Under the pieces are notes generated by a model, which saw only the letters and a program-made list of their open reading frames with translations, was not told the origin of the DNA and searched no databases. A stretch of DNA of 64,000 nucleotides from Persicimonas caeni (GTDB lineage: Bacteria > Myxococcota_A > Bradymonadia > Bradymonadales > Bradymonadaceae), in the NCBI RefSeq assembly GCF_006517175.1, contig NZ_CP041186.1, positions 3,125,074 through 3,189,073 of the forward strand, read 5' to 3'. The first letter of the stretch is position 1. Each line of letters opens with the position of its first letter. The translations under genes and the position numbers were made by a program. Shown in pieces: positions 3,244 through 63,228 of this stretch.

Positions 3244-3462
3244 GACGCGAGGGCGCGAGATGCTCGGAAGTGCCTCGGCGAGGGGGCGGCGAGCTCGCGG
3301 GCATCCACGGAAAAAGCCCCCGGCGGCTCGCCGGGGGCTTTGCTGTCCGCGCGCGCCACGTGCGGAGGTTATGCGGTCGGCTCGACGACGTCCTCGACGA
3401 CGGCCGCGGCGGCCATGACGGCGTTGTGGAGGTGTTTTGGGGGGGTAGCAGAGATTGGGGGA

Positions 3463-12204: not shown

Positions 12205-12222
12205 TTTCGGCTCCAGCGAGCC

Positions 12223-29927: not shown

Positions 29928-30092
29928 CCGCTGCCGCGCTCTCTCATCGCGGCCGAACTCATGGGCGTCGAAACCGTCGGTTGTTAAATACGTCCAAATT
30001 AACTACAAATGAGCCTCGTAATAACACCATCGACTGGAAGCGAGGGTCACGAGCCGCGTGCGTCCCGTTACAACGCTCGTAAGTGACGACGA

Positions 30093-33080: not shown

Positions 33081-33358
33081 CGTCGTTCGCGGAGCGGCTG
33101 CTTGCTGCCCGCGGAGCGCGCCCCGTTGTTTGGGGCGCCCGTGCAGCCCCGGGGCTCGCCCCGGGGGTTTGATCGACAATCACCACATGCGTTCGGCTAT
33201 GCGACGTTACGTTGTGCCGACACGTGGCGTTCAGAGTTGCCCCGAGTTCAGGAGACGCACGGTTAACCCCAAGGCAAGCCATGGGGCTGCACCGGCGAGG
33301 GCTCCGCTGGGGGCAAGCCCCCGCTCCGCATGATTCCGGCGTTCGCAGGCCATTTGCC

Positions 33359-40916: not shown

Positions 40917-41080
40917 ACAACTTCTCTCCAAAAGCATCGTCTTGATCAGGCGCCGTATCGCACTCTACAGACTTACCTTGCGGGCGCGTTTGCAAGCAAC
41001 CTGCGAGCACTGCTCACCGCAGTTGCCCAACCGGCCTCCCTTGGGGCACACTCGCCCAGCAAAACGTTTCTCCAGATTCG

Positions 41081-46221: not shown

Positions 46222-46809
46222 ATGTACCTCTACAAAGCACTCACGGGCGCAGCCCTGCTGCTCCTCGTCGCCGCTTGCAGCAACACCGTCGGCCGCAGCA
46301 TCAGCCGCGACCACGTCGGCACCAAATACGCCAAGCTGCAGGGTTATTTTCGCGCCGCCGACATGGTCGAAGAGGTCCCCGGCGACATCCGCCACGACGC
46401 GGTCCTGGACGAGGCGATCTTGACCAAAGCGGGCGACGCCGAGACCTGCGCCGAGGTGACCATCCGCACCGCGCGCCGCTACGACGAGCCCATCTCCCAG
46501 CAAAGCCCCACCTGCCAGGCCGCCGGCCAGACCGCCGAGGCGATCGCCGACAACGAGACGGTCAGCGTCTACGACTACAGCTACGCCGGCCGCATCGAGA
46601 CGGTCGCCGTCGACGCCGTCGCCCTCGACGAGTACGTCGGCCTGTCCATCTCCGAGCCGGCCGAAAAGATCTTCCGCGTCGTCGAGCGCAAGGCCACCGT
46701 CTGCTGCCCCATCTCCGGCCACTCCGGCGTCGAGCTCACCTTCGAGAACTCGCGCATGGACTACAACAACCTGGCCTACGGGCTGGGCTTCGACTGGAAG
46801 CTGCAATAA
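46222..46809 (+). CDS. Hypothetical lipoprotein
   Basis: Signal plus lipobox (MYLYKALTGAALLLLVAACSN). Coding-like composition, no recognisable domain. Confidence 0.5.
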   Translation: MYLYKALTGAALLLLVAACSNTVGRSISRDHVGTKYAKLQGYFRAADMVEEVPGDIRHDAVLDEAILTKAGDAETCAEVTIRTARRYDEPISQQSPTCQAAGQTAEAIADNETVSVYDYSYAGRIETVAVDAVALDEYVGLSISEPAEKIFRVVERKATVCCPISGHSGVELTFENSRMDYNNLAYGLGFDWKLQ

Positions 46810-46840: not shown

Positions 46841-48010
46841 TCACCGCCGACACCCGATACGCTCGGTCGCCACCACCACATCGTCGTACAGGATCGTCTG
46901 CTCGTCGGAGACGGTCAGCCCGCGGTCTTCGAGCGCCTGCTGTTTGCGCGCGCTCGAGCCGCGCTCGTAATACGCGTCGAGGATGACGCGCTTGAAGCCG
47001 ACCTCCTCGGAGGTGCGGAAGTTGAAGCCCTCGAAGGGCTCGGGCTCGCCGCACGCGCTCCAGTCGCAGCCGTCGGTGTGGAATTGGTCGCGCAGCCAGG
47101 TCCCCTCGGGGTGGCCGGCGCGGTACTCGCCGACCGGCTCGCCGTCCACCCAGAAGGCCAACTCCCCGTCCATCTGCCCGGGCGTATTCGCCTTCGCGCG
47201 CATCTCGATGCACACCCACTCGTCGAGGGGATAGGGCTGCTGGCCGGGCGGGCGGAAGGTGTTGCCATAGTGGTACGTCGTGCCCTGGTCGCCCGCGCAG
47301 CCGGGCTCGGCGGTGCCGTCGTTGCAGCGCCCCGAGCGCATCTCGTGCCAGTAGACGTAGAAGTTGAAGACGTTGTCGTTGTTGATGTCGAAGTCGAACC
47401 AGAACCCCTCGTCCCCCGGCGGCACGGTGTTGGCCAATCCGCTCGAGTTCCACGACGCGTTGCCCGCCGACACGCGCACCCAGTGGTGCGGGTTGGGGGC
47501 CACGTGCGGAAAGCGCGCGTAGAAGCGCCAATAGATCTCGTCGACCCGCTCGAAGCCCACCCGCGACGCCGACGAGATATACTGGTCATTCGCCAAATCC
47601 TCGGTGGTCACCGTCGAGCGCAGGTAGCCGCTGCCCGAGTGGGCGACCGCAGCGTCGTCCTGCATCGTCAGGTACTGCGTATCCGCCTGCGGCGCATCCC
47701 AGCGCCCCCACCCCGCCTCGAAATCGTCGAAAAAGAGCACCGCCGAATCCTCGGCCATCCCCTCATCCCCCGGATAACGCTCACTGAGCGTCGCCGCGTC
47801 GGCCTGTACGTCGGCTTGCGTGTCCGCCAGCACGTCCTCCGACACATCGGCCGCCGTCGTATCCGCCGCATCACTCGTCGCCACGTCGACCAACTCCCCG
47901 TCGCCTCCCGAGGAGCCGCCGTCGTCGCAACCGAGCGAGGCGAGCAGAAGCACCGAACACAAACCGACCACCAGACGTGCACCCATCATCATCCTCCGAC
48001 CACGAGTCAT
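46841..48010 (-). CDS. Secreted lipoprotein, possible polysaccharide-lyase/concanavalin-like fold (function unknown)
   Basis: Signal plus lipobox (LVVGLCSVLLLASLGCDD), an acidic linker, then a beta-rich domain with W/Y/H-rich segments. I cannot assign a family from sequence alone. Confidence 0.5.
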   Translation of the reverse strand: MTRGRRMMMGARLVVGLCSVLLLASLGCDDGGSSGGDGELVDVATSDAADTTAADVSEDVLADTQADVQADAATLSERYPGDEGMAEDSAVLFFDDFEAGWGRWDAPQADTQYLTMQDDAAVAHSGSGYLRSTVTTEDLANDQYISSASRVGFERVDEIYWRFYARFPHVAPNPHHWVRVSAGNASWNSSGLANTVPPGDEGFWFDFDINNDNVFNFYVYWHEMRSGRCNDGTAEPGCAGDQGTTYHYGNTFRPPGQQPYPLDEWVCIEMRAKANTPGQMDGELAFWVDGEPVGEYRAGHPEGTWLRDQFHTDGCDWSACGEPEPFEGFNFRTSEEVGFKRVILDAYYERGSSARKQQALEDRGLTVSDEQTILYDDVVVATERIGCRR

Positions 48011-48055: not shown

Positions 48056-48265
48056 CAACATCTTCCTCCCCTGCGCGAAGCACAGCGGAGCGTAGGGGAG
48101 GACCGAGGAGGGGACTCCTCCTCCGCGAAGCAACGCGAAGTGGAGGAGGACCGAGGAGGAGGCCGGGCTCCATAATCGAACCCCGCTACGGGCAACGCTC
48201 GACTCCCTCCGGTCGCCTCGCTCGCCCGCAGCTACAAGTTCCGTTTCACCCACAAGGGGTTCGAG
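48056..48265. repeat. Composite repeat: family-A half-element + family-B element (second copy of the 38771-38980 arrangement)
   Basis: caacatcttcctcccctgcgcgaagca...ggaggaccgaggagg followed by ccgctacgggcaacgctcg...cccgcagctacaagttccgtttcacccacaaggggttcgagg. Confidence 0.8.
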
Positions 48266-48969: not shown

Positions 48970-49968
48970 ATGGCCGCCATGAAATACGCCATCACACTCG
49001 TCATACTCGCCGCCGGTCTCACCCTCGCCACAGGTTGCGGCTCCGATGCCGACTCCACGCAGCAGAACACGGGCGACGCCGGCCAATCCGATACAACTCA
49101 GACCGATACAAACCAGCCTGACACGAATCAGCAGGACGCAGGCGGCGACGCGGCGCTCGCGCCGCCGTGGGATGCGAGCGCGCCGTTGGGCGGCGACCGT
49201 CCGGCGCGGGTGATCTTGCCCAACGCCTACGACCGCACGCAGAGCTGGCCGCTGGTCGTGTTGCTGCACGGGTACACGGCCACCGGGCCGCTGCAGGATG
49301 CCTATTTCGGGTTGAGCCGGCGTGGCGACGAGCGTGGGTTTATCACCGTGCTGCCCAACGGGACGCAGGACGGGGCGGGCAACCGGTTTTGGAACGCGAC
49401 CGACGCGTGCTGCAACTTCGGGGGGAGCAGCGTCGACGACGTGCAGTACCTGAGTGACCTGCTCGCCGAGGCCAAAGAGCGCCTGGCGGTCGACGCCGAC
49501 CGGGTCTACTTCATGGGGCACTCCAACGGCGGGTTCATGAGCTACCGGATGGCCTGCGAGCTCGGCTCCGAGATCGCGGCCATCGCCAGCCTGGCGGGCA
49601 GCGCGTTCGACGACGCGCAGGATTGCGCCGAGAACGGGCAGGTGGGCGTGCTGCAGATCCACGGCGACGCCGACGAGACCGTGCTGTACGACGGCGGCCA
49701 ATTCGCCGGCAACGCCTACCCCGGCGCGCGCGAGGTCGCCGAGCGCTGGGCGGCCAGAAACGGCTGCGACGCCCAGGCGCAGACCGGCGAGGCGGCCGAT
49801 CTCGACAAGGATGTCGACGGCGCCGAGAGCGATATCGAGCAGTGGGGTGGGTGCGAGGCCGACCGGCGCGTGGAGCTGTGGAGCATCCGCGGCGGCGGGC
49901 ATATCCCGAGCCTGAGCGACGATTTTACCGACCGGGTGCTCGACTTTTTGTTCGCGCACAGCCGATGA
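48970..49968 (+). CDS. Secreted alpha/beta-hydrolase, PHB-depolymerase-type esterase lipoprotein
   Basis: Signal plus lipobox (ITLVILAAGLTLATGCGSD), T/Q/D-rich linker, nucleophile elbow GHSNGG and the esterase core VVLLHGY...FMGHSNGGFMSY. Confidence 0.75.
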   Translation: MAAMKYAITLVILAAGLTLATGCGSDADSTQQNTGDAGQSDTTQTDTNQPDTNQQDAGGDAALAPPWDASAPLGGDRPARVILPNAYDRTQSWPLVVLLHGYTATGPLQDAYFGLSRRGDERGFITVLPNGTQDGAGNRFWNATDACCNFGGSSVDDVQYLSDLLAEAKERLAVDADRVYFMGHSNGGFMSYRMACELGSEIAAIASLAGSAFDDAQDCAENGQVGVLQIHGDADETVLYDGGQFAGNAYPGAREVAERWAARNGCDAQAQTGEAADLDKDVDGAESDIEQWGGCEADRRVELWSIRGGGHIPSLSDDFTDRVLDFLFAHSR

Positions 49969-49977
49969 GGAGCGAAA

Positions 49978-50170
49978 AAGCTAACGAGCGAAGCAGGGAA
50001 TGAGCGAAGAAGGGAATGAGCGAAGAAGGGAATGAGCGAAGAAGGGAATGAGCGAAGAAGTGAATGAGCGAAGAAGGGAATGAGCGAAAAAGAGAATGAG
50101 CAGAACAGGTAATGAGCGAAAAAAGGAATGAGCGAAAAAGGGAATGAGCAGAACAGGTAACGAGCAAAAA
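49978..50170. repeat. Tandem array of about 12 copies of a 16-bp unit (gaatgagcgaagaagg) with 3' degeneration
   Basis: Directly visible perfect copies, then diverged copies (gaatgagcgaaaaaga, gaatgagcagaacagg). Confidence 0.9.
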
Positions 50171-50303
50171 AGGCGCGCAAATTCTGCCTACGCGGCGCGC
50201 TGACGAAAATATTGCCTACCTCGAACGGCGCTGGAGACCTCTCTAGCGCCGTTTTTCGTGGCACACGCCTTGCATCGCCTTTCTACGGTTTAAATCCACC
50301 CCG

Positions 50304-51151: not shown

Positions 51152-53254
51152 ATGCGCTACCGTGCTTGTTGTGCCGCCCTCGGTTTATTCGCCCTACTCA
51201 CTGTGTCCGCCGGATGCTCCGAGGATTCGGGCGGCGGGACGGACGCGCCGCTCGACGGCGGGTCCGGTGCGGACGCCGCGGCTGACGTGGGCGACGTCGG
51301 CGACGACGCAGCCGACACGTCCGATCCGGGCGACACCGGCGTCGACGCGACCGATGCGGCGGACGCCGACAGTTCGTCCGACTCCGGGGATGCGGCCGAC
51401 GCCTCCGACACCGCGGAGGACGTCGAAGAGGACACCACGCCCGCCGCCGAGTGCGGCAACGGCGTGCGCGAAGAGGGCGAGGCGTGCGACGGCGACGATA
51501 TCCCCGAGGCGTGCACGGGGTGGAGCGAGGCGGTGTCGTGCACGGCCAGCTGCGAGTTGACCCCGTGTCGGGGCAGGCTCACGATCACGCCGAGCACCCA
51601 GGGCCAGGTCGACCTGGCCAAGGTCACCGCGGACGGCCAGACGCTCTTCTTCTACACCTCGGCGGGCGGCGACCTCGTCGACTGGCACTCGCTCGATCTG
51701 GCGACCGGCAACGTCACCCCGGTGGCCTCGGGGCTCGACGAAGACTTCGCCGCCGTCTACCCGAGCTCCACCGGTGAGCACGCGGTGCTCTACGAGTTCT
51801 TGTCGCCCTTCAAGGTGTGGACGAAGTCGACCGGCGCGCTGGTCGACTTGACGGTCGATCCCGTCGAAGACCAGCTCTACGTGTACGACCACGCCCTGGC
51901 CTATCTCGAGGAGCGCGGCAACAGCCGCCGCGAGCACGCCCTGCATGTGTTCGACTACGCCAGCGGCCAGACCACCGAGGTGCTCGACAACGTCTACGAA
52001 CCGTACGGAAGGCTGCGGGTCAGCCCCGACGGGCGCTACATGGCGGTGTGGACGCAGGCGGACTTCGACGCCCCATTCGAGATGCACGTCGTCGACCTGA
52101 CCACCGCCAGCGTGCTGGCGAGCGACTCGAGCCGCGACACGGTGCGCGGGCGCTTCTCGCCGACCGGCGAGGCGTTCGTCTTCGAGAAGAACTCGGGCCT
52201 GGCGGTGTGGTTTGCGGCGACGAACACCATCGAGGAGGCCCCCAACGGCGGCGGCACCGTCCTGGAGGCGCGGTTCTCGCCCGACGGCTCGCTTCTGGCC
52301 TACGCCGACCCGGTCAACAGCACCAACAAGGACTACGAGAGCTGGTTGTGGGACTTGCAGGCCAACACCGACACCGCGTTGAGCGATCGAGCGGGCACGC
52401 GCTTCGACTTCTCGCCCGACGGCACCAAGCTGGCCCATTTGAGCACCCGCAGCCCGAGCTTGCGAGACAGCGCCGAGCTGCGCATTCGCGACCTGACCAC
52501 GCAGACCGATATCGTCGTGGCTGACGGCGTGGCCCACGAGCACGTCACCTGGAGCCCGTCGAGCGACGCGGTGGCCTTCGCCGACCCGACCTCCAACTAC
52601 ATCTACGCCGAAGAAGACTTGCGCGTCGCCGAGCTGGCCAACGGGGCGGCCACTGTCCACGACGTGACCCGCGGCGGCTCGGCCCGCGCGGTGTGGCACC
52701 CCGACTCCGAAGGCCTGTTCTGGATTACCGCCCAGAGCCAGGTGCAGAGCAAGCGCTTTGGCTACTGGCAGCGCGCCTCGCAGCAGACCACCGAGTTGCT
52801 CGACGAGTTGCGCCAGAGCTTTTCGGTGATCGTCAACGCCACCTGGGATCACGTCCTGGGCGTCTTCCCGGGCACCGGGCTCAACCCGGGCGCGCCCATC
52901 ACCGCCTTCGCCCCCGACACCCAGACGACCACCGAGCTGTCGGCCTCCGACCGCTTCCGCGCCGAGTGGTTCGACGGAGGTTCGCCCCACTCGGCCGCCT
53001 GGACCGGCCAGGGTCAGTGGTTGGGGCCGACCTCGCGGTTTGTGAGCTGGCGAGAGCGCGACGAGGAGTTCGACGGCACCGGCCCGCTGGACGTGTTCGA
53101 CCTGGCCACCGGCACCACCAGCAGCGTGCCGCTGCTGCTGAGCGATGAGGCCCGGCTCAACGACCACATGCACGGGTCGGACGCCGTGGCGGTCGTGGAG
53201 TTATACCGCCCGCAGTATACGAACACTTATACGTTCTGGATCTATCGGCCGTAG
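51152..53254 (+). CDS. Lipoprotein with acidic linker, Cys-rich module and TolB/WD40-like beta-propeller
   Basis: Signal plus lipobox (LGLFALLTVSAGCSED), a D/A/S/T-rich linker, an ECGNGVREEGEACDGDD Cys-rich module, then repeated (R)FSPDG...(L)A(Y/F) motifs typical of TolB-like propellers. Confidence 0.7.
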   Translation: MRYRACCAALGLFALLTVSAGCSEDSGGGTDAPLDGGSGADAAADVGDVGDDAADTSDPGDTGVDATDAADADSSSDSGDAADASDTAEDVEEDTTPAAECGNGVREEGEACDGDDIPEACTGWSEAVSCTASCELTPCRGRLTITPSTQGQVDLAKVTADGQTLFFYTSAGGDLVDWHSLDLATGNVTPVASGLDEDFAAVYPSSTGEHAVLYEFLSPFKVWTKSTGALVDLTVDPVEDQLYVYDHALAYLEERGNSRREHALHVFDYASGQTTEVLDNVYEPYGRLRVSPDGRYMAVWTQADFDAPFEMHVVDLTTASVLASDSSRDTVRGRFSPTGEAFVFEKNSGLAVWFAATNTIEEAPNGGGTVLEARFSPDGSLLAYADPVNSTNKDYESWLWDLQANTDTALSDRAGTRFDFSPDGTKLAHLSTRSPSLRDSAELRIRDLTTQTDIVVADGVAHEHVTWSPSSDAVAFADPTSNYIYAEEDLRVAELANGAATVHDVTRGGSARAVWHPDSEGLFWITAQSQVQSKRFGYWQRASQQTTELLDELRQSFSVIVNATWDHVLGVFPGTGLNPGAPITAFAPDTQTTTELSASDRFRAEWFDGGSPHSAAWTGQGQWLGPTSRFVSWRERDEEFDGTGPLDVFDLATGTTSSVPLLLSDEARLNDHMHGSDAVAVVELYRPQYTNTYTFWIYRP

Positions 53255-53545
53255 AGCTTGGAGGCAGCGCATCTTGCGCTGGGTGCATTGGCGCGCGCTC
53301 CTGCTACCAGCGCTGGAAGCGCTGCCTCCAAACGGCGCCGTAGAGCTTGGAGGCAGCGCATCTTGCGCTGGGTGCATTGGCGCGCGCTCCTGCTACCAGC
53401 GCTGGAAGCGCTGCCTCCGAACGGCGCTGGAAGCGCTGCCTCCAAACAGCGCCGTAGAGCTTGGAGGCAGCGCATTTTGCGCTGGTTGCATTGGCGCGCG
53501 CTCCTGCTACCAGCGCTGGAAGCGCTGCCTCCAAACGGCGGCGAC
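53247..53545. repeat. Tandem array of 3 copies of a about 92-114-bp palindromic unit (family D; gtagagcttggaggcagcgcatcttgcgctgggtgcattggcgcgcgctcctgctaccagcgctggaagcgctgcctccaaacggcgcc)
   Basis: Three consecutive near-identical copies. Each unit is itself an inverted repeat (ggaggcagcgc ... gcgctgcctcc). A related single unit lies at 55690-55775. Confidence 0.9.
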
Positions 53546-53646
53546 GGGACCGGAGCTCTCACCGAGTCGCCGCGCCACGGTTGTCGAGCGCGGCGACTCG
53601 ACGTAGGATGGGCGGTCCGGAATTGAAACTACGATGAGTGACGAAA

Positions 53647-54279
53647 ATGAAGAACAGAATCCCCTCGAAGCTCCATCTTCTGCTGATCCTCACCTTTGTG
53701 CTCGCCCTGGCCGCTTGCTCCGACGACGCGACGAGCGGCACGCAGACGAGCGACGTTGCCCTCGAAGAGGACGCCGCCTCGGCGTCGGACGCGAGCGATA
53801 TGGCCGCGCGAGACACGGATGAAAAAGATGCCGGCGAAGAGGATACCGGCGAGCAGGATGCGGGAGACGAGGATACCGGCGCGCAGGATGCGGGCGCGGA
53901 CGATACTGGCGTCCAGGATTCGGGCGCGGAAGATACCGGCGTCCAAGATTCGGGGACCCAGGATGTGGGTCAGCAGGATACCGGCCAGCAGGATACCGGC
54001 CAGCAGGACGCGGGCATCGACTCCGGCCTGAGCTGCACACCCGGCGACACCAAGCAGGTCGAATGCAACACCTGCACGTGCACCCAGCAGCAGGTGTGGA
54101 GTTGCACCAAGATGGCGTGCCCCGGCGGCCCGTACGACCCGTGCGAGAACAAGAGTTGCGGCGAGACCTGCACGCTGTGCGATCCCGCCGACCCCAACTG
54201 CAGCGAGACCGCCGTGGTCAAGTATTGCGACGAGAACGGCAACTGCAGCGCGCAGAACTCGCCGCAATGCAGCATTTGA
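53647..54279 (+). CDS. Cys-rich secreted lipoprotein with (DTGxQD)n acidic repeats
   Basis: Lipobox LTFVLALAACSDD, repeats EDTGEQDAGDEDTGAQDAGADDTGVQDSGAEDTGVQDSGTQDVGQQDTGQQDTGQQDAG, then a 14-Cys module (CTPGDTKQVECNTCTCTQQQVWSCTKMACPG...CDENGNCSAQNSPQCSI). A GTG at 53638 is an alternative start. Confidence 0.7.
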   Translation: MKNRIPSKLHLLLILTFVLALAACSDDATSGTQTSDVALEEDAASASDASDMAARDTDEKDAGEEDTGEQDAGDEDTGAQDAGADDTGVQDSGAEDTGVQDSGTQDVGQQDTGQQDTGQQDAGIDSGLSCTPGDTKQVECNTCTCTQQQVWSCTKMACPGGPYDPCENKSCGETCTLCDPADPNCSETAVVKYCDENGNCSAQNSPQCSI

Positions 54280-54282
54280 GGC

Positions 54283-55572
54283 TCACAGCTCCAAGTCGAC
54301 CCACACCAGGTGATGGTCGGAGACGTCGACGAGCTCGGCCTGCGGCTGGCCGGGCGCGGGCCAGAACACTCCGCTGTCGGTGACCGACAGGCCCTGTGAG
54401 GGCAGCGCGTAGTCGACGCGCAGGTTGCCCACGCGGCCGTCGCTGAAGTCGGCGGTGTCGAGCGCGTGGTCGCCTTCGTGCTCGGCGTTGGCCCGGCCCT
54501 GGTCTTCGCCGGCCTGCGCGCCGCCCTCGCTGGTGGGCTGCGGGTCCTGGGCGAAGGCGAGCAGGTCGACGAGCGCGCCGCGCCGGCTGTCGCCGTCTTT
54601 CGGGTCGGTGTTCAGATCTCCCACCACCACAAACTCGGCGCCGTCGGCGAGCCCGCCGGCCACGCCGCTATCGTCGACCAAATAGGCCGCCTGCTCGCCG
54701 CCGGTGACGTAGTCGAGCCACAGGCGAACCTCGTCGTGATTGCGCCGCCCGTTTCGGTCCTCGGGGCCGTCGAAGGCCGGCGGGGTCGGGTGACTCGCCA
54801 GCACGTGCACGGTCGTGCCGTCGATCTCGACGGGCACGTCGACGTGGTTCTTCGACGACAGGCGCATCACGTCCTTGGCCTCCTCCGAGTAGAAGTCGGC
54901 GGGCATCTGCGAGTCGGGCATCTCCTTCCACAAGAACTCTTGAAAGCTGCGGATCGCGTCGGTCGCGATGGGATAGCGCGAGTAGATGACCATGCCGTAT
55001 TGGCCCGTAAACTGGCCGTAGCCGTACGAGTCGTTGCCGTAGGCGTTGCTGCCCGGCTCGGTGGTCGCCTGGCCGTCGCCGTCGAGGTCGACGCCCGACG
55101 ACAGGCCGGTGTTGGTCGCCGGCACGTAGCGGTGGGCGTAGTCGAGGGCCTCTTGGCCGGCCTGGCCTACTGCCAAATACTCCTCTTGGAAGATCCGCGC
55201 GGCCTCGCCGTCGGCGTCCCAGTCGAACTCGTTGATGAGGACGACGTCGGGGCGCACGCGCTGCAGGACCTCGGCGACCTCTTTGGCCTGGGCGTCCTGG
55301 CCGCCGGCGAGGTCGTCGGCGAGTTGGCCGGCCTGCTGGCGGTAGAGCGAGGCGTTGTAGGTGGCGACGCGGACGGTGGTGGGGGCACTGGTGGTGTCTT
55401 GCTGGGTTGCGTCCTGCTGGGTTGCGTCCTGCTGGGTTGCGTCCTGCTCGGTCGTATCCTGCTCGCCGGCGTCGGCCTGGGCGTTGGAGTCGTCGACGGT
55501 GTTGTTCTCGCTGGCGCAGGCGGTCAGGGTGGCGCACAGGGCGAGGGTGAGGAGGTGGTGCTTGCGGATCAT
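54283..55572 (-). CDS. Secreted endonuclease/exonuclease/phosphatase (EEP) family lipoprotein
   Basis: Lipobox LALCATLTACASE, (QDAT)n linker, and EEP motifs (VRVATYNASL, VVLINEFDWD, VVGDLNTDPKDGDS, SDHHLVWVDLEL). Confidence 0.75.
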   Translation of the reverse strand: MIRKHHLLTLALCATLTACASENNTVDDSNAQADAGEQDTTEQDATQQDATQQDATQQDTTSAPTTVRVATYNASLYRQQAGQLADDLAGGQDAQAKEVAEVLQRVRPDVVLINEFDWDADGEAARIFQEEYLAVGQAGQEALDYAHRYVPATNTGLSSGVDLDGDGQATTEPGSNAYGNDSYGYGQFTGQYGMVIYSRYPIATDAIRSFQEFLWKEMPDSQMPADFYSEEAKDVMRLSSKNHVDVPVEIDGTTVHVLASHPTPPAFDGPEDRNGRRNHDEVRLWLDYVTGGEQAAYLVDDSGVAGGLADGAEFVVVGDLNTDPKDGDSRRGALVDLLAFAQDPQPTSEGGAQAGEDQGRANAEHEGDHALDTADFSDGRVGNLRVDYALPSQGLSVTDSGVFWPAPGQPQAELVDVSDHHLVWVDLEL

Positions 55573-55689
55573 GTTGTTTCTCGGGGGGTTGGGTGAGCTT
55601 GGCGGGGAGGACTATAAGGGAGGCGTGGGATTTTGGCGACCATTATCGTTTTTTTGGGGCGGGGACGCCCCTGAGGCTGTCACTAAAGG

Positions 55690-55775
55690 TCGCCATAGTT
55701 TGGAGGCAGCGCTTCTAGCGCTGGTTGCATGAGCGTACGGGCTTGCAACCAGGGCAAGATGCCCGGCCTCCAAAG
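55690..55775. repeat. Family-D single unit (gtttggaggcagcgcttctagcgctggttgcatgagcgtacgggcttgcaaccagggcaagatgcccggcctccaaa)
   Basis: Shares the ggaggcagcgc core with the 53247 array and the gggcaagatgccc motif with family C. Confidence 0.7.
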
Positions 55776-56009
55776 GCTTTCGCGACAGCCTCGTCCCCGA
55801 CCGCCGGGGTCCGTCTCGGGCCCCGCACGTGTTCGAGCAGGGCGTAGCTTGATGGGGCCCCCATCCACCTCGCGCTGTACGACGCGCGAGGCACCTTCCC
55901 CCGGGGGAAGGGATGTCCTTGCTTGTTTGCAAAGCGTTGGGTATTCGCTGGATTGTCGTCGTGGTGTTACAATCGCGCGGCGGGTGGCGGAGTTCGACGC
56001 GGGCAGAGG

Positions 56010-59000
56010 ATGTATTCAATATCGTGCGGTGCCTATGACCTCCACGAGGTCATCGGCGAAGGGGGAATGGCCCAGGTTTGGAGGGGCGTCCACCGAGCCA
56101 AAGGGGTGCCTGTGGCGGTCAAGGTGGTCACCGCGGGCAACTCGCTCGAGGCGGCCTACGTCGACAGCTTCGAGCGCGAGGTGCAGGCGGTCGCGGCGTT
56201 GAACCACCCCGGGATCGTGCGCGTGTTCGACTACGGGCGCATCAGCGAAGAGACCGCCCGCGGGCACGAGAGCCTGGCGGCCGGGAGTCCTTACCTGGTC
56301 ATGGAGCTGTTCGAGGCGGGCCCGCTCGAGCCGGGGCGCGCCATCACCAGTTGGGCGGAGGTGTGCGATTTTGCCTTCGCGCTGCTCGACGCGCTCGCTC
56401 ATGCCCATGCTCGCGGGGTCATCCACCGCGACATCAAGCCCGACAATATCCTGTGCGATGACGCAGGCTCCCCCACCCAGCCGAACCGAAACTATCCCAA
56501 TTCAACCTATACAAATAGGCGTCACTACAAGCTGAGCGATTTCGGCCTGGCGCACGCCGCCGAAGAAGGCGTCGGCGAGGCCGTGTCGGCGGGGACGCCG
56601 CAGTATATGCCCCCCGAGCAGCTCACCGGGCGCTGGCGAGACTTCGGCCCGTGGACAGATCTGTACGCGCTCGGGTGTCTGCTCTACGAGCTGGTGTGCG
56701 GCCGGCTGCCGTTCGACCACGAGAAGCTGTTGCGCATCGTGCACATGCAGATGCACGAGCCCTTGCCGCCCATCGAGCCGCGATTCGCGGTGCCCGCCGG
56801 CCTGGAGGCGTTTTTGCGCCGGATGGTGGCCAAGGAGCCGGCCAAGCGGTTTCGCCGGGCGGCCGACGCGGCCTTCGCGCTGGCGCAGCTCGAGGCGCCG
56901 GTGGCCCGAGTGGCTGCCCCGCCGATCGGGCCGCCGCCGTCGCAGATCGACACCGACGCCGACACGCTGATGGACACCTCGCCCGAGGCGTACACGGCGC
57001 TGCACGAGGGGCATTTGCCCACGCGGGTCTCCCACGACACGATGGCCGACCTGATCCAGACGGAGACGACGCGCGGCATGGCGACCTTGCCGCTTTGGGA
57101 GGGGCCGCTGATCGACGCATCGGCTCCGAAAACGTCGCCCGACACGTTAGTCGATGTCGAGGCGGCGCTCTCCAACTTCGAGCCGCCGCCGCCCCTTCCC
57201 GAGAGCTGGCGTCTGGCCGAGCCCGAGCAGAAGCTCAAGCAGCTCGACGGCACCGGGCTGGAGTTGTTCGGGCTGCGCGCGCTGCCGTTTGCGGGCCGCC
57301 AACTCGAGCGTGACGAGATGTGGCGGGTCTTTCGCGAGGTCTTCGAGACGCAGGGGCTGCGCGTGGTCAGCCTGCGCGGGCCGGCGGGCATCGGCAAGAG
57401 CAGCCTGGCCGAGTGGATGAGCCACCGGGTCGAGGAGATGGGCGCGGCCAACGCGCTCAAGGCGCTGCACAGCTCGCGAAGCGGGGCGAACGAGGGCGTG
57501 CCGGCGATGCTCGAGCGTTATTTCGGCGTCTGGCATTGCTCGCGCCAGCAGATCTACGAGCGCATCGTCGAGCGCCTCGAGTATGTGCGGCCTACTAGCG
57601 ACGGCGGCGCCGACGCCGACGTCGAGCAGGCCGAGGCGGACGACGAGTTGGCGCGCGCGCTCACCGAGATTATTCGCCCGGCGAAGTCCGACACCGACGA
57701 CGACGGCCCCACCTACCAGTTCTCCAGCCACGGCGAGCGCTACGCCACCGTGCGCAAGCTGCTCGAGCGACTCGGCTCGGAGCGGCCGGTGTTGATGTGG
57801 CTCGACGACGCCGTGCGCAGTCAGATGGCGCTCGGATTCGTGCGCTACCTGATGGAGCACGACAGCACGCTGCCCATTTTGATCGTGCTGACCTCGTCGA
57901 ACGAGACGGCCACCGAGAACACGGTGGCGGCGGGTTATCTGCGAGAGATCGAAGAGGACGACCGGGTCGACCGCCTCGACCTGCGGCCGATGGACACCGC
58001 CGCGATGGGCGAGCTGATCGGCCAGGCCTTGCGCCTCGACGACGCGTTGGTCGCGCGCCTGCAGCGCCGCGCCCAGGGCTTGCCGCTGTACGTGACCCAG
58101 CTCCTGGGCGACTGGGTCAGCCAGGGTGCGCTCGTCGACGGCGAGGCCGGGTTTCGGCTGCGCGAGGACGGCGCGGAGGCCTTTCCGGTGAGCATCGCCG
58201 AGCTGTGGGACCGGCGTATCGAGCGGCTCTTGGGCCGGTTCGACGCCGCGCGTCGCGACGGGTTCGAGATCGCGCTCGAGCTCGCCGCCACGCTCGGCCA
58301 CCAGATCGACCAGGCCGAGTGGCTCGCCGCGTGTGAAGCGCGCGGGATCTCGGGCGCCAAGCAGCTCTTGGCGGCCATGTTCGACGAGAACCTCGCCCGG
58401 CTGACCGCCCCGGGCGCGCTCTTCGCCCACGAATTGCTCACCGACAGGCTGGTGCAGCGCGCTCAGGAGGCCGGACGCACCCGCCAGAACCACCGCGCCT
58501 GCGCCCGAGCCCTCGAGCAGGTCTACCCGCCCAGCGACGTGGAAGCTGCGGTGCGAAGCGCGCGCCACCTGATGGACGCCCACGCCCTCGATGACGCCCT
58601 CGACAAGCTCGAGGCGACGCTGTTGCACCTGCGCGAGTCGGGCGATGCATCGGCGGCGATGTCGCTGCTCGACCGATGCAAGAAGGCCGCCGACCGACTG
58701 GGGCTGGACGAGAACCACCGCCGCAGGGCGCGCCACGCATGGCTTCGCGGCCACTTCTTGCTCATGCGCGGCGAGCTACGCGAGGCGCAGCGCTGCGCCC
58801 AGCAGGCCATCGAGTCCGCCGAGCGCCACGAGTGGCATAACGAAGCCGGCCACGCCCGGATCATCGAGGGCCGCTCGCTGATGGGCCAGCTCGAGCTCGA
58901 CGCCGCGATGGAGAGCTACAAAAAGGCGACGCGTCATTTCGAGGCCACCAAGGATCGCGAGGGGCTCGCCCGCGCGAAGTTCGGCAAGGGCGTCGTTCAC

Positions 59001-59654
59001 ACTCACAGCGGCGAGCACGCCGCGGCCAAGCAATGTTTCAAGGAGGCGGCCTGGTGCGCCGAGCTCGTCGACGACGGCCCGCTGCGCGCCAAGTCCCTGG
59101 TGCAACTAGGCACCGTCTTGCTCGCCGAAGGCGACCCCGACGAGGCGTTCGCGTGCACCGAGCAAGCCTATAAGATCGCCGAGCAGGCGGGCGCACGCGC
59201 CTCCCGCGCGAACGCCGCGCGCCACCTGGGCGAGATCGCCCGGCTGCAAAAAGACTGGGAGACGGCGCGCCGCTGGCTGCAAGAAGCCTACGACGCCACG
59301 CTGTCGGCGATGATGTTCGTGCGCCACTACGACCGGCTCAACCTGGCCCTGGTCGACCTGGACACCGAGCACTACGAGCGCGCCGACACCACCTTTGGCG
59401 AGTTGCGCGACAGCTTCGCTCAGGCCCAAGACAACGCCGCCCTGCCCTTGATCGACCTGGCGCGCGTGCTGTGCGCCGTGGCGCTCGACCGCCAGGACCA
59501 GTACCTCGAAGAGCTCGCCCGAGTCGCCGACAACCCCGCGCCCGCGCCGAATATGCGTCGCGACATGGCCGCGATTGCCGAGAAAGCGGCCAAATTGGCT
59601 GAGGCGCGCGGGTGGGATGGGGTTGGGGTGTTGCGGGGTGTTGGTGAGGCGTAG
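56010..59654 (+). CDS. STAND-type Ser/Thr protein kinase (kinase domain + NB-ARC/AAA-like NTPase + TPR repeats)
   Basis: Kinase subdomains GEGGMAQVW, VAVK, HRDIKPDNIL, DFGLA, PQYMPPEQ. A P-loop LRGPAGIGKSSLAEW follows at about residue 480. The C-terminal 400 aa are TPR-like helical repeats. ORF track begins at 55923; ATG 56010 has an RBS. Confidence 0.8.
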   Translation: MYSISCGAYDLHEVIGEGGMAQVWRGVHRAKGVPVAVKVVTAGNSLEAAYVDSFEREVQAVAALNHPGIVRVFDYGRISEETARGHESLAAGSPYLVMELFEAGPLEPGRAITSWAEVCDFAFALLDALAHAHARGVIHRDIKPDNILCDDAGSPTQPNRNYPNSTYTNRRHYKLSDFGLAHAAEEGVGEAVSAGTPQYMPPEQLTGRWRDFGPWTDLYALGCLLYELVCGRLPFDHEKLLRIVHMQMHEPLPPIEPRFAVPAGLEAFLRRMVAKEPAKRFRRAADAAFALAQLEAPVARVAAPPIGPPPSQIDTDADTLMDTSPEAYTALHEGHLPTRVSHDTMADLIQTETTRGMATLPLWEGPLIDASAPKTSPDTLVDVEAALSNFEPPPPLPESWRLAEPEQKLKQLDGTGLELFGLRALPFAGRQLERDEMWRVFREVFETQGLRVVSLRGPAGIGKSSLAEWMSHRVEEMGAANALKALHSSRSGANEGVPAMLERYFGVWHCSRQQIYERIVERLEYVRPTSDGGADADVEQAEADDELARALTEIIRPAKSDTDDDGPTYQFSSHGERYATVRKLLERLGSERPVLMWLDDAVRSQMALGFVRYLMEHDSTLPILIVLTSSNETATENTVAAGYLREIEEDDRVDRLDLRPMDTAAMGELIGQALRLDDALVARLQRRAQGLPLYVTQLLGDWVSQGALVDGEAGFRLREDGAEAFPVSIAELWDRRIERLLGRFDAARRDGFEIALELAATLGHQIDQAEWLAACEARGISGAKQLLAAMFDENLARLTAPGALFAHELLTDRLVQRAQEAGRTRQNHRACARALEQVYPPSDVEAAVRSARHLMDAHALDDALDKLEATLLHLRESGDASAAMSLLDRCKKAADRLGLDENHRRRARHAWLRGHFLLMRGELREAQRCAQQAIESAERHEWHNEAGHARIIEGRSLMGQLELDAAMESYKKATRHFEATKDREGLARAKFGKGVVHTHSGEHAAAKQCFKEAAWCAELVDDGPLRAKSLVQLGTVLLAEGDPDEAFACTEQAYKIAEQAGARASRANAARHLGEIARLQKDWETARRWLQEAYDATLSAMMFVRHYDRLNLALVDLDTEHYERADTTFGELRDSFAQAQDNAALPLIDLARVLCAVALDRQDQYLEELARVADNPAPAPNMRRDMAAIAEKAAKLAEARGWDGVGVLRGVGEA

Positions 59655-59905
59655 CTTTCGGTGCGAGTGCATCCCTGCTCTCGCTCACGAGGGCGAGATG
59701 CCCACGCACCGAACACTTCGCGCGCTATCGGTGCGAGTGCTTCCAGCTCTCGCGTTTTGTTTGTAGTCACAGCTTTCCGTCGCCCCCCATCCGCCCTTCG
59801 CTTCGCTACGGGCACCTTCCCCCCGGGGGAAGGGATGCCCTCGCCGCATTGTGGCGTGGTCGGTTGTTGGGGGAGATTCTGCGTGGCGTTGTTATTCTAC
59901 GACCG
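59655..59905. repeat. Family-C repeat, left copy (about 250 bp; contains gagggcgagatgcccacgcaccgaa sub-repeats and the cttcgcttcgctacgggcaccttccccccgggggaagggatgcc palindrome)
   Basis: An inverted, more than 85 % identical copy lies at 61595-61860. Confidence 0.85.
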
Positions 59906-60870
59906 ACTGACCGAAGTAGAACGTCACCTTGCGTGGGGCTTCGTCATCGCGGCCATGCTCGTCGTTGTAGTCGGAGACTTTCTGGCGAAGGGCCGACACT
60001 CGCTCGCGAGTCTCGCGCAGGAGCGCCAGGACCTCGTCCTCGTGCGGATGACCCTCGGGGACGTCGAACGAGTAGGTGCTACCCCCGACGACATCCGACG
60101 GGAGTGTCTTGAGGCGCAACTGGCGCAACTTGACGCACAATGCCGTGACCATGGCGTTGAAGTGATCGAAGACCGCGGCTTCCCAGCCTGCGGCTTCGTC
60201 CATCGGGATGAAGCAGGTGTCGGCTCGGTACAAAAGTTCGTCGCCGCGCTCGTCTTCGATGATGCGGCCCTCGTCGAGAAGTTGGACGAGTGCGTCTTCG
60301 AGTTCTTCTTTGCCGGCGCCGGTCATCGGCCCGAGTTGCTCGAAGCTCACCGGCCCGCTGCGGTACACGGCGATCCAAAGGAGCATCGCCAGCGAGTCGT
60401 GGTTCTCACCGGCGACAATCTGCTCGATCTCTTCGTCACTCGCCGCGCGGTAGCTCGTCTTTTGGCCGCGCCCGGTTTGGAAGACGAGCCCCGACTCCAC
60501 CAGATCACGCAAGATGCCTTTGACGCTGGCCTCATCGTCGTCCGCAAAGCGGGTGAGCACCTCGGCGCGGCGCACGACCTTTTGAGCGCGGATGAAGTCG
60601 AGCACCGCCTCCCACAGCGAGCGCTCGCGGTCGGTGAGGCTCTCGGAGAGGCGCTGGATCTTGAGCTGGTAGGAGCGCAACGCCAGCCCGAACATGTCGG
60701 CGGCGACCTTGCGCGTACCCCCCTGCGTTTCGAGCTCGTTGGCCAGATCCAAGAAGACCTGGTTGGCCACGTGCGCCAGCGGCGCGCGGATGCCGGCGGT
60801 GGTCGCCAGTTGGGCGACGAGCACCGTCGTCTGCTGGATGACTGTGTCGATGAGCAGTTTGACGTTCATG
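59892..60870 (-). CDS. Hypothetical cytoplasmic protein (about 326 aa), possible winged-helix region
   Basis: Start at MNVKLLIDTV (ORF track extends upstream to 61163 across the neighbouring gene). Coding-like composition, no recognisable catalytic motif. Confidence 0.45.
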
Positions 60871-60882
60871 GTGTAGTGGGGC

Positions 60883-61557
60883 TCAGTTGCAAATGACGTC
60901 CCAGCCGTCGCCGGCGTCGGCAACTTCGCCGATGGAGGACTCCGCGCAGCCGTTGTCGCAGGTTCCGACGTAGTCGCCGGGGCCGCAGCTCGATCCCTCG
61001 CTGCACGGCATCGGGCCGTAGGGAAGCTGGTAGACCTCTCCGTTTTCACATCGCAGTCCGCCGAAGCAGTCGATATGGCAGTCATCGTCGACATCGGCGT
61101 CGTCACTGATGTCCGTAGCGTCGCTCGTGATCGCGTCTGCGGTGTCGGCCGTGTTTCCGGCATCAGCCAGCGTCGACGCGTTCATCATCATGCAATGGCC
61201 GCCCAAACACTGCAGCCTCGAGTCGCGCTGCTCGCACTCAGCGTTGGTCTGGCATGGCTCGAAACATACGCCGCCGGAGCCCGACAAGGTCTCGCCGCAC
61301 GCGTCGTTCAAGTCGACGCCCGGCTCGGCGCACACGGCGACCTGTGCACACGAGTTCTGCGCCCCGCACGCCTCGGTGCACACCCCGCACTGGCAAGAGA
61401 GGTCGCTCACGCAGTCGGCGTCGGTGCGGCAGGCTTCCAGATTCCCTGACTGCCAGTGAGTTTCGCTGTCGGTGCTCGGGTCGCTGTCGTTCGAGCACGC
61501 AGCGAGCAGAAGGGCGAGGAAGGCGATGAACAAAAGTCGGTCGAGTCGGCGGTGCAT
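60883..61557 (-). CDS. Cys-rich secreted lipoprotein (about 28 Cys)
   Basis: Lipobox FLALLLAACSND, EGF-like or defensin-like spacing of Cys (CRTDADCVSDLSCQCGVCTEACGAQNSCAQVAVC...), and an acidic T/D-rich segment. Confidence 0.6.
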   Translation of the reverse strand: MHRRLDRLLFIAFLALLLAACSNDSDPSTDSETHWQSGNLEACRTDADCVSDLSCQCGVCTEACGAQNSCAQVAVCAEPGVDLNDACGETLSGSGGVCFEPCQTNAECEQRDSRLQCLGGHCMMMNASTLADAGNTADTADAITSDATDISDDADVDDDCHIDCFGGLRCENGEVYQLPYGPMPCSEGSSCGPGDYVGTCDNGCAESSIGEVADAGDGWDVICN

Positions 61558-61908: not shown

Positions 61909-63228
61909 ATGAAGATCAAGAAGCTTCATGCTCTGCTCGCCCTTGCGCTCAGCGTTTCGCTGGTCGGCGTCGGGTGCGACAAGAAGGAAGAGGCCAAGAC
62001 CGACGAGAAGGCCGAGGCCGAAGGCGCCGCTGAGGAAGCCGCCCCCGAGATCAAAGCCGACAAGGGCGTCGATTTGGAGAGCAAGACCATCCACGTGGGC
62101 GCGCTCAACGACACCAGCGGACCGGCGGTGGCCATCGGCAAGCCGTTCGCGGTGGGTAAGAAGCTCGTGGCCGAGCGGGTCAACGCCGGTGAGGTGCTGC
62201 CCGAGGGTTGGAAGGTCGAGATGCACAACAAAGACCACGGCTACAACCCGCAAAAGGCGCTGCAGGGCTACAAAGAGATGAGCGACGACGTCCTGTACGT
62301 CGCCACCAGCTTCGGCACCCCGCCGACCTTGCAGGTGCGCCCGATGCTCGAGCGCGACAAGGTCGTGGCCTTCCCGGCGTCGTTGTCCGAGCAGCTCGCC
62401 CAAAACGAGTTCACCCCGCCCACCGGCCCGACCTACAAGATGGAGACGATGCGCGCGTTCGACTGGGCGGTCGAGCACGCCAAAAAAGGGGGCAAGGAGT
62501 TCAAGCCCGGCATCATCTACCAGGCCGACGACTACGGCAAAGACGGCATCGACGGCATGAAGCAGGCCGCCAAGGCCCACGGCGTCGAGATCGTGGCCGA
62601 GGCGTCGATCAAGCCGGGCGAGAAGGAAGTCACCGCCGCGGTCAAAAAGCTCAAGGACGCCGGCGCCAACTACGTCATGCTCACGCTGCTGCCGTCGAGC
62701 GCCGCCCCCGTGCTCGGCAAGGCCGCCCAGCTCGAGTACCAGCCGGTCTTCATGGGCAATACCCCCACCTGGGTCGACGCCTTCTTCAGCGACAAGAGCC
62801 CGGCGCCGCCGCAGATCTTCGCCAACTTCCACTGGGTCACCGGCTTTCCGTACTGGGGTGAGGACGTGCCCGGCATGAAGGAGTTCGAGGCGGCTTTCGA
62901 CAAGCACGCCAAGGACCAGCCGCGCGACTTCTACGTGCTCGTCTCCTATATCCAGGGGCTGGCGCAGGCCGAGATCTTGAAGCGCGCCATCGAGAACAAG
63001 GACCTGACCCGCGAGGGCTTCGTGACGGCGATGCACAGTATCGAGGACTGGAACGCCGACGGCCTCATCCAGCCCATCAGCCTGGAGAAGGTCCCCTACG
63101 TCACCGGCACCAAGACGCGCGTGCTCAAGCCCAACTTCGAGAAGAAGACCTGGGAGGTCGCCGGCGACTACAAGACGCCCAAGGCGTTTGAAGGCGCAGG
63201 CGACAAGCAAGCCAAGAAGGACGAATAA
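61909..63228 (+). CDS. ABC transporter substrate-binding lipoprotein (type I periplasmic binding protein, Liv-like)
   Basis: GGAGGA RBS. Lipobox ALALSVSLVGVGCDKK followed by an E/A/K-rich linker. The PBP1 fold is recognisable from conserved segments and an ABC ATPase gene follows. Confidence 0.7.
   Translation: MKIKKLHALLALALSVSLVGVGCDKKEEAKTDEKAEAEGAAEEAAPEIKADKGVDLESKTIHVGALNDTSGPAVAIGKPFAVGKKLVAERVNAGEVLPEGWKVEMHNKDHGYNPQKALQGYKEMSDDVLYVATSFGTPPTLQVRPMLERDKVVAFPASLSEQLAQNEFTPPTGPTYKMETMRAFDWAVEHAKKGGKEFKPGIIYQADDYGKDGIDGMKQAAKAHGVEIVAEASIKPGEKEVTAAVKKLKDAGANYVMLTLLPSSAAPVLGKAAQLEYQPVFMGNTPTWVDAFFSDKSPAPPQIFANFHWVTGFPYWGEDVPGMKEFEAAFDKHAKDQPRDFYVLVSYIQGLAQAEILKRAIENKDLTREGFVTAMHSIEDWNADGLIQPISLEKVPYVTGTKTRVLKPNFEKKTWEVAGDYKTPKAFEGAGDKQAKKDE

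Follow-up and report, generated by a model that had tools for sequence, protein, structure and literature searches.

Ten predicted lipoproteins in the window

We analysed a 64,000-nucleotide stretch of the Persicimonas caeni genome (contig NZ_CP041186.1, positions 3,125,074 to 3,189,073; hereafter the window), focusing on a group of predicted lipoproteins in most of which an acidic linker separates the lipidation site from the head. P. caeni (class Bradymonadia, phylum Myxococcota) is a diderm predator; it is a flagellated member of the Bradymonadales and originates from a solar saltern (PMC7188933). The window has a G+C content of 65%, and 44 genes were called by third-position GC. Flagellar, chemotaxis and regulatory genes occupy the first 39.5 kb; the lipoprotein genes all lie within 39.5-63.2 kb.

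Rules of the PROSITE PS51257 type recognise a lipobox ([LVI..][ASTVI..][GAS]C) preceded by at least six uncharged residues and a K/R n-region, with the Cys about 15-35 residues from the start. A rule of this kind, {DERK}(6)-[LIVMFWSTAG](2)-[LIVMFYSTAGCQ]-[AGS]-C, was run on every gene and every plausible start. Exactly 10 of the 44 genes fit it and the other 34 fail. A first-pass annotation of this DNA had noted that at least five neighbouring genes and an RCC1 protein begin with a lipobox; all six genes that it named fit the rule, each with a K/R n-region and a hydrophobic core, and four further genes fit it as well. On the strength of the signal-peptide rule the ten proteins are presumably lipoproteins, with lipidation and cleavage by signal peptidase II predicted.

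The first of the six named genes encodes an RCC1-repeat β-propeller lipoprotein (39561-40937, minus strand; Pfam RCC1_2, E=1e-48; lipobox TGGC), in which a 58-residue acidic linker (net charge -20) leads into a 16-Cys region and seven RCC1 repeats. The second is a PHB/PHA-depolymerase-type esterase (48970-49968, plus strand; Pfam Esterase_PHB; lipobox ATGC) that also matches the NCBIfam extracellular scl-PHA depolymerase catalytic domain at E=1e-39, under the cut-off of that model. Its linker is 48 residues long, rich in D, T, Q and N, with a net charge of -9. Directly downstream of the esterase gene lies a tandem array of a 16-nucleotide unit (GAGCGAAAAAGGGAAT; 49970-50173; 12.8 copies, 85% match). 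The TolB/PD40-like β-propeller lipoprotein (51152-53254, plus strand; Pfam β-propeller and PD40 matches, a weak NCBIfam match to TolB; lipobox SAGC) has a D/A/G/S linker of 78 residues with a net charge of -26; the propeller is preceded by a 6-Cys module. A CGNGxxExGExCD motif in this protein was considered as a Myxococcus cysteine-rich repeat (TIGR02232), and this candidate was dropped: the NCBIfam search (E<=0.01) gave the weak TolB match only. The intergenic space between the propeller gene and the next gene is filled, at 53248-53540, by 89/114-nucleotide tandem repeats with 96-98% match.

That next gene (53647-54279, plus strand) encodes a pacifastin-type protein, which is described in its own section below. 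It is followed by an endonuclease/exonuclease/phosphatase (EEP) lipoprotein (54283-55572, minus strand; Pfam Exo_endo_phos, E=1e-26; lipobox LTAC) with a 45-residue linker (55375-55515; net -11); a PDB sequence search with the EEP protein gave no match. The last of the six is a Cys-rich lipoprotein without close relatives (60883-61557, minus strand; lipobox LAAC), for which there is no match in Pfam, NCBIfam or the PDB and for which a word-index homologue search returned only the protein itself. Its 21-residue linker (S/D/T; net -5) leads into a 14-Cys module A; a second, internal acidic linker spans residues ~126-164 and connects this to an 8-Cys module B'. Ten nucleotides downstream of this gene lies a gene of 326 residues without family match (59892-60872, minus strand), and the two are probably co-transcribed.

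The four further genes include a large Ig-like/lamin-tail-domain (LTD) lipoprotein (41582-44782, plus strand; Pfam LTD and I-set; lipobox GTAC). Its lipobox Cys is residue 34, counted from the ATG at 41582, and its 36-residue linker is rich in E, T, P and A (net -7). A lipoprotein with a weak polysaccharide-lyase (PL)-like head (46841-48010, minus strand; Pfam Polysacc_lyase, E=0.003, under the curated cut-off; lipobox SLGC) has an acidic linker of 53 residues (net -13). An ABC-transporter substrate-binding protein (SBP; 61909-63228, plus strand; Pfam Peripla_BP_6, E=9e-50; lipobox GVGC) has a linker of a different flavour, 28 residues long, rich in E, A and K and thus Lys-containing (net -6). 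The SBP has Asp at +2, the inner-membrane retention residue of E. coli; this would suit the partner of an ABC importer, but is only a resemblance. The fourth is a small lipoprotein (46222-46809, plus strand) without family match in Pfam or NCBIfam. It has no acidic linker (residues +2 to +6 are SNTVG) and serves as an internal negative example.

Lipoproteins account for 10 of the 17 genes in 39.5-63.2 kb and for none of the 27 elsewhere in the window (binomial p~8e-9 under an assumed 6% lipoprotein background). Such a concentration could mark a co-evolved island in which the gene products jointly serve predation or competition, and the first-pass annotation had described the lipoproteins as a cluster. 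The adjacency of the pacifastin and EEP genes is kept in a 97%-identical metagenomic relative, whose two proteins (P0152 and P0153) are both listed with a longest contig of 6,472 nucleotides. However, the ten genes lie on both strands and have separate intergenic regions, with cytoplasmic genes between them (thioredoxin-like, peroxiredoxin, hemerythrin, and a Ser/Thr kinase with AAA/TPR domains), and their heads are functionally unrelated. The EEP loci of Bradymonas sediminis (L122) and Microvenator marinus (L124) have no neighbours in common with the window. On this synteny a conserved operon or island was rejected, and joint action as a module appears quite improbable. The ten genes amount to envelope or secretome genes concentrated at one place, with no conserved operon or machine.

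Two further features of the window may be recorded here. A very large open reading frame of 1,845 residues (33212-38749) separates the regulatory genes from the lipoprotein region. GC-rich, REP-like intergenic repeats of ~43-52 nucleotides are found at 2770-2886, 2970-3063, 3144-3252, 3460-3569, 3653-3746, 9173-9274 and 48066-48159, one copy separating the genes of the PL-like and esterase lipoproteins.

Acidic linkers follow the lipobox

Six of the ten lipoproteins (RCC1, PL-like, esterase, propeller, pacifastin and EEP) have long linkers directly after the lipidated Cys. These linkers comprise 45-105 residues with a net charge of -9 to -30, contain 0-2 Lys or Arg residues, and are poor in hydrophobic residues. 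Asp and Glu make up ~20-33% of the linkers and Lys and Arg 0-2%, compared with 15.2% and 9.8%, respectively, in the proteome of the window. By the Uversky charge-hydropathy boundary, every linker is classed as disordered, and eight of the ten proteins have 28-105 such residues; in the AlphaFold2 (AF2) model, the remaining linker residues are at pLDDT <50. An acidic linker had been claimed for all six of the genes singled out earlier. It is indeed long in five of them (RCC1, esterase, propeller, pacifastin and EEP), but that of 60883-61557 has only 21 residues. The repeats described as (DTGxQD)n and (QDAT)n are borne out, as D-T/A/S-G-x-Q/E units in 53647-54279 and QDATQ units in 54283-55572. 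Two other readings of the linkers, the D-T-G and D-S-G triplets as an aspartic-protease motif and the repeats as thrombospondin-type Ca-binding repeats, were dropped, there being neither hydrophobic context nor a family match.

To compare the lipoproteins with the other proteins of the window, we defined an acidic segment as a 30-residue window with at least eight D/E, at most one K/R and at most four hydrophobic residues. Such segments follow directly after the lipobox in 6 of the 10 lipoproteins, and occur anywhere in only 2 of the 34 other proteins (Fisher p=6.9e-4). Low-complexity stretches of other kinds are also present in the window. A predicted membrane protein that is not a lipoprotein (30087-30875) has a different acidic repeat, an alternating (D-x)n stretch (DIDLFDLDIDLDTDFDIDMDLDVDADVDGDFDVDADG; DNA repeat at 30196-30306). 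In the flagellar cluster, the type-I signal peptide of a FliO-like protein (11284-12222) is followed by an (AADKP)n spacer (DNA repeat at 12014-12069), which contains Lys, unlike the lipoprotein tethers.

The EEP catalytic domain has thousands of relatives, and we compared the 120 best, of which 116 could be classified for the presence of a lipobox by an automatic call and inspection. In the 106 homologues with a lipobox, 12-64 residues (median 36) separate the lipidated Cys from the start of the conserved domain. In the ten that lack a lipobox and have plain signal peptides, including Tat-type ones of Streptomyces, the median is 4.5 residues (Mann-Whitney p=4e-7). The pooled linkers of the 93 automatically classified homologues contain 22% D+E and 2.9% K+R; the adjoining EEP domain (69-homologue set) contains 16% and 7.3%, respectively. 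The lipobox forms have the linker and the non-lipobox forms do not; therefore, it is the lipid anchor, rather than the enzyme, that the linker accompanies. The EEP family amounts to a clean natural experiment, in which the same catalytic head has a disordered linker essentially only when it is lipid-anchored. Genome-wide amino-acid bias as the sole cause of the linkers is not upheld: because acidic segments are enriched after lipoboxes in the window, and because linkers are present essentially only with a lipobox among the EEP homologues, the linker is tied to lipoprotein status.

A milder form of this explanation deserves attention. In a moderately halophilic, GC-rich organism with an acidic proteome, the linkers could be mainly a compositional by-product, slippage filler whose acidity has no specific function, and the finding would then be ordinary annotation-level knowledge. 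The excess of D+E over K+R in the window proteome and the origin of the isolate from a solar saltern (PMC7188933) would fit this account, as would the slippage-prone 15-nucleotide repeats, the copy number of which differs between near-identical strains. In E. coli, an artificial GS linker can replace the native linker of RcsF (bioRxiv 10.1101/2021.01.05.425367), and the S/T/G/P-rich linkers of actinobacterial lipoproteins suggest that filler may be lineage-dependent. What speaks against a by-product is the exclusion of Lys and Arg, which goes well past the bias of the proteome both in the window (0-2 in 45-105 residues) and in the pooled EEP linkers. The acidic D-x-G repeat is also found in Archangium, Polyangiales and other Myxococcota metagenome-assembled genomes (MAGs) of varied sources, and the (AADKP)n spacer of 11284-12222, a non-lipoprotein, does contain Lys. 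We consider a mere by-product unlikely. The EEP family also shows that the charge of a linker, beyond disorder alone, can be strongly constrained.

The DNA encoding the linkers is partly repetitive, with tandem repeats of period 15/30 at 53827-54015 in the pacifastin gene and of period 15 at 55396-55463 in the EEP gene, the latter encoding the QDATQ units. The head of P0032, an orthologue of the pacifastin protein, is 69% identical to that of P. caeni. Its linker is of similar length (111 vs 105 residues) and composition (P0032/P. caeni: D 27/23%, G 14/14%, T 13/10%, A 13/14%, Q 9/11%, K+R 0/2%; S is 10% in P. caeni), but the two linkers align no better than expected for low-complexity sequence. 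On a shorter time scale, the metagenomic EEP relative P0153, which is 97% identical, has exactly one QDATQ unit fewer and differs from the P. caeni protein at 9 of 48 linker columns, compared with 5 of 363 domain columns. The contrast is milder for P0152 and the pacifastin protein (12/105 in the linker vs 5/81). These comparisons indicate that linker length and composition are conserved and sequence is not, with variation supplied by repeat slippage.

Could the acidic repeats have been kept to bind Ca2+ or Mg2+, becoming rigid or cross-linked to lipopolysaccharide or matrix, or buffering metals? The density of Asp is very high, the D-x-G-x-x-D spacing in the pacifastin protein is regular, and the saltern habitat is rich in divalent cations (PMC7188933). 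Set against this, the repeats match none of the known families of Ca-binding repeats (in Pfam, the one hit was weak, to Pentapeptide_2 at E=0.006), their sequence is not conserved between orthologues, and regular spacing is lacking in many linkers, for example in those of EEP homologues. We regard a role in cation binding as very unlikely.

The first-pass annotation had further proposed a lineage-specific grammar of secreted proteins. No match to a degenerate DNA version of (D-[TA]-G-x-[QE])2-D turned up in 100 shuffles of the window, and the real sequence has four overlapping matches, all in the linker of 53647-54279. A scan of 185,579 species genomes with the same D-[TA]-G-x-[QE] pattern gave at least 120 loci, which are a sample and not a census; the P. 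caeni genome is not among the matches listed. Among those that are, in-frame repeats with a convincing lipobox no more than 50 residues upstream occur in Myxococcales, Archangium, Polyangiales and Sandaracinaceae, in MAGs of unclassified Myxococcota or 'Deltaproteobacteria', and in a Persicimonas, a Bacteriovoracaceae and one Acidimicrobiia MAG. The listed Actinomycetota matches are mostly out of frame or without a lipobox, a dilution by chance at high GC, and the actinobacterial lipoproteins in the fetched loci have linkers rich in S, T, G and P. The grammar thus does not hold as a lineage-specific one: the acidic D-x-G-x-E/Q-D repeat is present in other Myxococcota and in Bacteriovoracaceae, and disordered N-terminal linkers are general in diderm lipoproteins (bioRxiv 10.1101/2021.01.05.425367). 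At the sequence level, the acidic D-x-G flavour recurs in Myxococcota lineages beyond Persicimonas.

The pacifastin protein and its 8-Cys companion domain

The pacifastin protein (53647-54279) is the part of this region that most deserves experiments. All its features lie on the plus strand: a lipoprotein signal peptide according to the lipobox rule (53647-53718; MKNRIPSKLHLLLILTFVLALAA ahead of the lipidated Cys), a 105-residue polyanionic tether (53719-54033; net -30, two Lys/Arg, partly encoded by 15-nucleotide repeats), a pacifastin-type serine-protease-inhibitor domain (residues 130-158; 54034-54120), and an 8-Cys domain termed module B (residues 159-210; 54121-54276). The inhibitor domain matches Pfam PF05375 (Pacifastin_I) with 35.5 bits, above the gathering score of 27.9, and the automatic UniRef label is 'Pacifastin domain-containing protein'. 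We take the pacifastin family to be MEROPS I19. A phmmer search of the PDB gave E=4e-8 to SGPI-1 and SGTI (2xtt_A, 1kj0_A, 1wo9_A), with all six Cys residues kept. With the AF2 model (mean pLDDT 65, moderate), the top 20 Foldseek matches are all pacifastin inhibitors at target-normalised TM-scores of 0.51-0.75, the top five having 50-67% identity over 27-34 aligned columns.

The pacifastin pattern is Cys1-X9-12-Cys2-Asn-X-Cys3-X-Cys4-X2-3-Gly-X3-6-Cys5-Thr-X3-Cys6, with disulphide bonds 1-4, 2-6 and 3-5 and the reactive bond between the last two Cys residues (PMC2689174). The P. caeni domain reads C-9-C-N-T-C-T-C-7-C-T-KMA-C, the sole departure being Gln in place of Gly between Cys4 and Cys5. 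Where SGTI and SGPI-1 have C-T-R-K/M-G-C, the alignment places Lys-Met at P1-P1' (Arg-Lys in SGTI); with Lys at P1, the domain is predicted to be trypsin-directed. Given ~55% identity to locust inhibitors, inter-kingdom transfer of the domain is a possibility. In a 2026 Sci Rep paper, 24 bacterial pacifastin-like accessions were reported, 23 of them by structure only, from myxobacterial genomes of 10.8-13 Mb and from CPR MAGs (PMC13388995); Persicimonas is mentioned neither in the text nor in two of the supplementary files of that paper. Our finding adds a sequence-detectable bacterial member to a family long thought to be arthropod-specific.

Dense Cys modules are present in four proteins of the window (RCC1, propeller, 53647-54279 and 60883-61557). 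The earlier claim of Cys-rich modules common to the lipoproteins holds to this extent, but there is not one module; a single shared module was rejected, as the spacings differ and there is no meaningful pairwise similarity. Each of the eight mature proteins that contain Cys has an even number of these residues (28, 6, 4, 6, 6, 6, 14 and 22; p=0.004), suggesting that the heads are probably disulphide-bonded outside the cytoplasm. The picture of a tether with a disulphide-rich head is likewise right as regards the order of anchor, linker and head and the even Cys counts, but most of the heads are ordinary enzymes or propellers.

A word-index homologue search with the 90-residue Cys-rich head of the pacifastin protein returned no relatives. 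An exhaustive HMMER search, in contrast, gave 542 proteins at E<=1e-3, most of them matching module B, and the best 150 matches include 114 proteins with 318 copies of the module. A recognisable lipobox was counted manually in ~85 of ~120 bacterial matches. The Cys spacing of module B is C-4-C-3-C-2-C-6-C-8-C-5-C-7-C in 53647-54279, with a last gap of 6-9 residues across the family. Many non-Cys positions are also conserved (consensus Y-x-P-C-x-G-K-x-C-G-x-x-C-T-x-C-D-P-x-D-P-x-C-x-E-T-A-V-x-K-x-C). Module B has no Pfam family, even with six copies in the query, and no structural match in the PDB, making it a widespread 8-Cys domain without family or structural assignment. Eighteen of the 20 module-B clusters that were looked up are metagenome-only; the two with an organism are from Myxococcota.

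Module B occurs in varied company. It alternates with pacifastin domains in P0005 (four of each) and in P0025. P0018, a metagenomic protein of 816 residues with a ZU5-like N-terminus, contains four copies of module B, three Kazal domains and further Cys-rich repeats, by its sequence a mosaic of inhibitor-type modules. In P0021, the N-terminal module is homologous to module A of 60883-61557 (E=1e-12); three copies of module B come after it, beyond an acidic linker. These arrangements point to a shuffling of Cys-rich modules between lipoproteins, with acidic linkers as the joints. Given this company of pacifastin and Kazal domains, module B may itself be a new inhibitor or protease-binding domain. 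We tentatively suggest, as a possibility that still has the odds against it, that 53647-54279 belongs to an undescribed family of tethered, multi-headed protease inhibitors that, on long polyanionic leashes resistant to proteolysis, would form an anti-protease layer round predatory bacteria.

Tether function and known systems

Around half of E. coli's outer-membrane lipoproteins possess disordered N-terminal linkers longer than 22 residues, which are required for efficient Lol-dependent sorting; their length and disorder matter, but their sequence does not (bioRxiv 10.1101/2021.01.05.425367). We consider it likely (probability roughly 70%) that the P. caeni linkers follow this known principle of the disordered lipoprotein tether, in a form that is unusually long, polyanionic and repeat-built, and with assorted envelope or secreted heads. 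Export of the ten proteins would presumably go through Sec, with lipidation at the Cys of the lipobox. Most of them would have a disordered polyanionic tether, nearly free of Lys and Arg and poor in hydrophobic residues, between the lipid anchor and the folded head. A tether of 45-105 residues would have a contour length of ~16-38 nm and an estimated mean end-to-end distance of ~5-8 nm. Its length and composition would be under selection and its sequence would not, and slippage of the 15-nucleotide repeats would make and resize the tether. The tether may offer the Lol sorting machinery a disordered stretch and may serve as a spacer, freeing the head to work at a distance from the plane of the membrane, with the negative charge of the tether keeping the leash extended and off the anionic membrane. 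Without Lys, Arg and bulky hydrophobic residues, it should also be a poor substrate for trypsin- and chymotrypsin-type proteases. The heads would be independent modules, mostly hydrolytic or binding, and the pacifastin head could plausibly shield the predator's own envelope from proteases.

Several points weigh against this interpretation. The tether is common but not obligatory, being absent from 46222-46809 and short in two other proteins. Its acidity may be partly driven by habitat, given the overall acidic proteome and the solar saltern. Among neighbouring Myxococcota lipoproteins, only 1 of 15 candidates exceeded a strict acidity threshold, although several more are visibly rich in D, A, G and T; this sample is small and noisy, and some of the candidates are spurious. 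The sorting and spacer roles are carried over from E. coli, and the resistance to proteases is purely our reasoning from composition. Finally, the evidence base consists of the 44 genes of the window, homologue families and a non-exhaustive genome scan.

If the tether interpretation is correct, the EEP contrast extends the requirement for disorder in E. coli lipoprotein sorting to another phylum. The mechanism of predation in Bradymonadia is poorly known, and the region combines envelope-tethered hydrolases with a tethered, probably trypsin-directed inhibitor, which are candidate tools or self-protection devices. From the head types alone, the heads could plausibly serve predation or competition; surface sensing and metal binding, also suggested by the first-pass annotation, are guesses.

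The lipoproteins also bear comparison with those carrying the lipoprotein export signal (LES) of Bacteroidota, for which the consensus is SDDDD in B. fragilis and SDDFE in F. johnsoniae and a polar residue plus at least two acidic residues suffice (PMC5080379). In four of the ten P. caeni proteins, polar and then acidic residues follow the lipidated Cys (S-D-D in three and S-E-D in one; residues +2 to +6 are SDDPE, SDDAT and SEDSG, and SDDEE in the LTD protein), and SDD recurs in several pacifastin/module-B lipoproteins. As in the LES lipoproteins, the cargo consists of hydrolases and binding proteins for external macromolecules, of the kind that a predator meets outside the cell. The acidic mature start (C-S-D-D, C-S-E-D and the like) and the polyanionic linker might thus be a signal for surface export or vesicle packaging, placing the heads on the surface or in predation vesicles; the LES is also reported to drive packing into vesicles (PMC6222051, PMC10319031). 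However, the motif is not general: in 69 automatically classified EEP lipoprotein homologues, Ser is found at +2 in 37 and Asp at +3 in 8. The LES pathway is known only from Bacteroidota, a different phylum, and its signal is 4-5 residues long, whereas the acidity of the P. caeni proteins spans tens of residues. In Myxococcus xanthus, the nearest experimentally studied relative, lipoproteins are divided among the inner membrane, the outer membrane and the extracellular matrix, with matrix export depending on Ala at +7 and inner-membrane retention on Lys at +2; linkers were not addressed in that study (PMC3222651). Lys is at +2 in none of the ten P. caeni proteins, and Ala is at +7 in none of the six that were read (RCC1, PL-like, esterase, propeller, pacifastin and EEP). 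On balance, an export or packaging signal seems a doubtful explanation of the linkers.

The pacifastin domain shares the six-Cys pattern, the C-N-x-C-x-C core and the C-T-x3-C loop with the arthropod inhibitors SGPI-1/SGTI, PMP-C and PMP-D2 (2xtt, 2f91, 1gl0; PMC2689174), and a basic P1 residue with the trypsin inhibitor SGTI. The insect pacifastins are soluble haemolymph peptides, whereas the P. caeni form is bacterial, has a lipid-anchor signal and a 105-residue tether, contains Gln for Gly between Cys4 and Cys5, and is fused to the unrelated 8-Cys domain. Like the pacifastin-like domains described in PMC13388995, it places the pacifastin scaffold in bacteria, myxobacteria included; unlike that set, it is sequence-detectable, scores above the Pfam gathering threshold, and comes from an 8.05 Mb Bradymonadia genome.

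Inhibitors that guard the cell from hydrolases are familiar from other bacterial envelopes, examples being the periplasmic ecotin and the lipid-anchored lysozyme inhibitor MliC. Their folds are unrelated to that of the P. caeni protein, for which a protective role is inferred, and neither has a long tether.

The closest parallel to the tethers themselves is provided by RcsF, Pal and NlpD of E. coli (El Rayes et al., bioRxiv 10.1101/2021.01.05.425367). There, too, a lipobox is followed by more than 22 disordered residues and then by a globular domain, and the linker is tied to lipoprotein status. The P. caeni linkers differ from those of E. coli in reaching up to 105 residues, in their net charge of -9 to -30, in being nearly free of Lys and Arg, and in consisting partly of pentapeptide repeats encoded by 15-nucleotide units.

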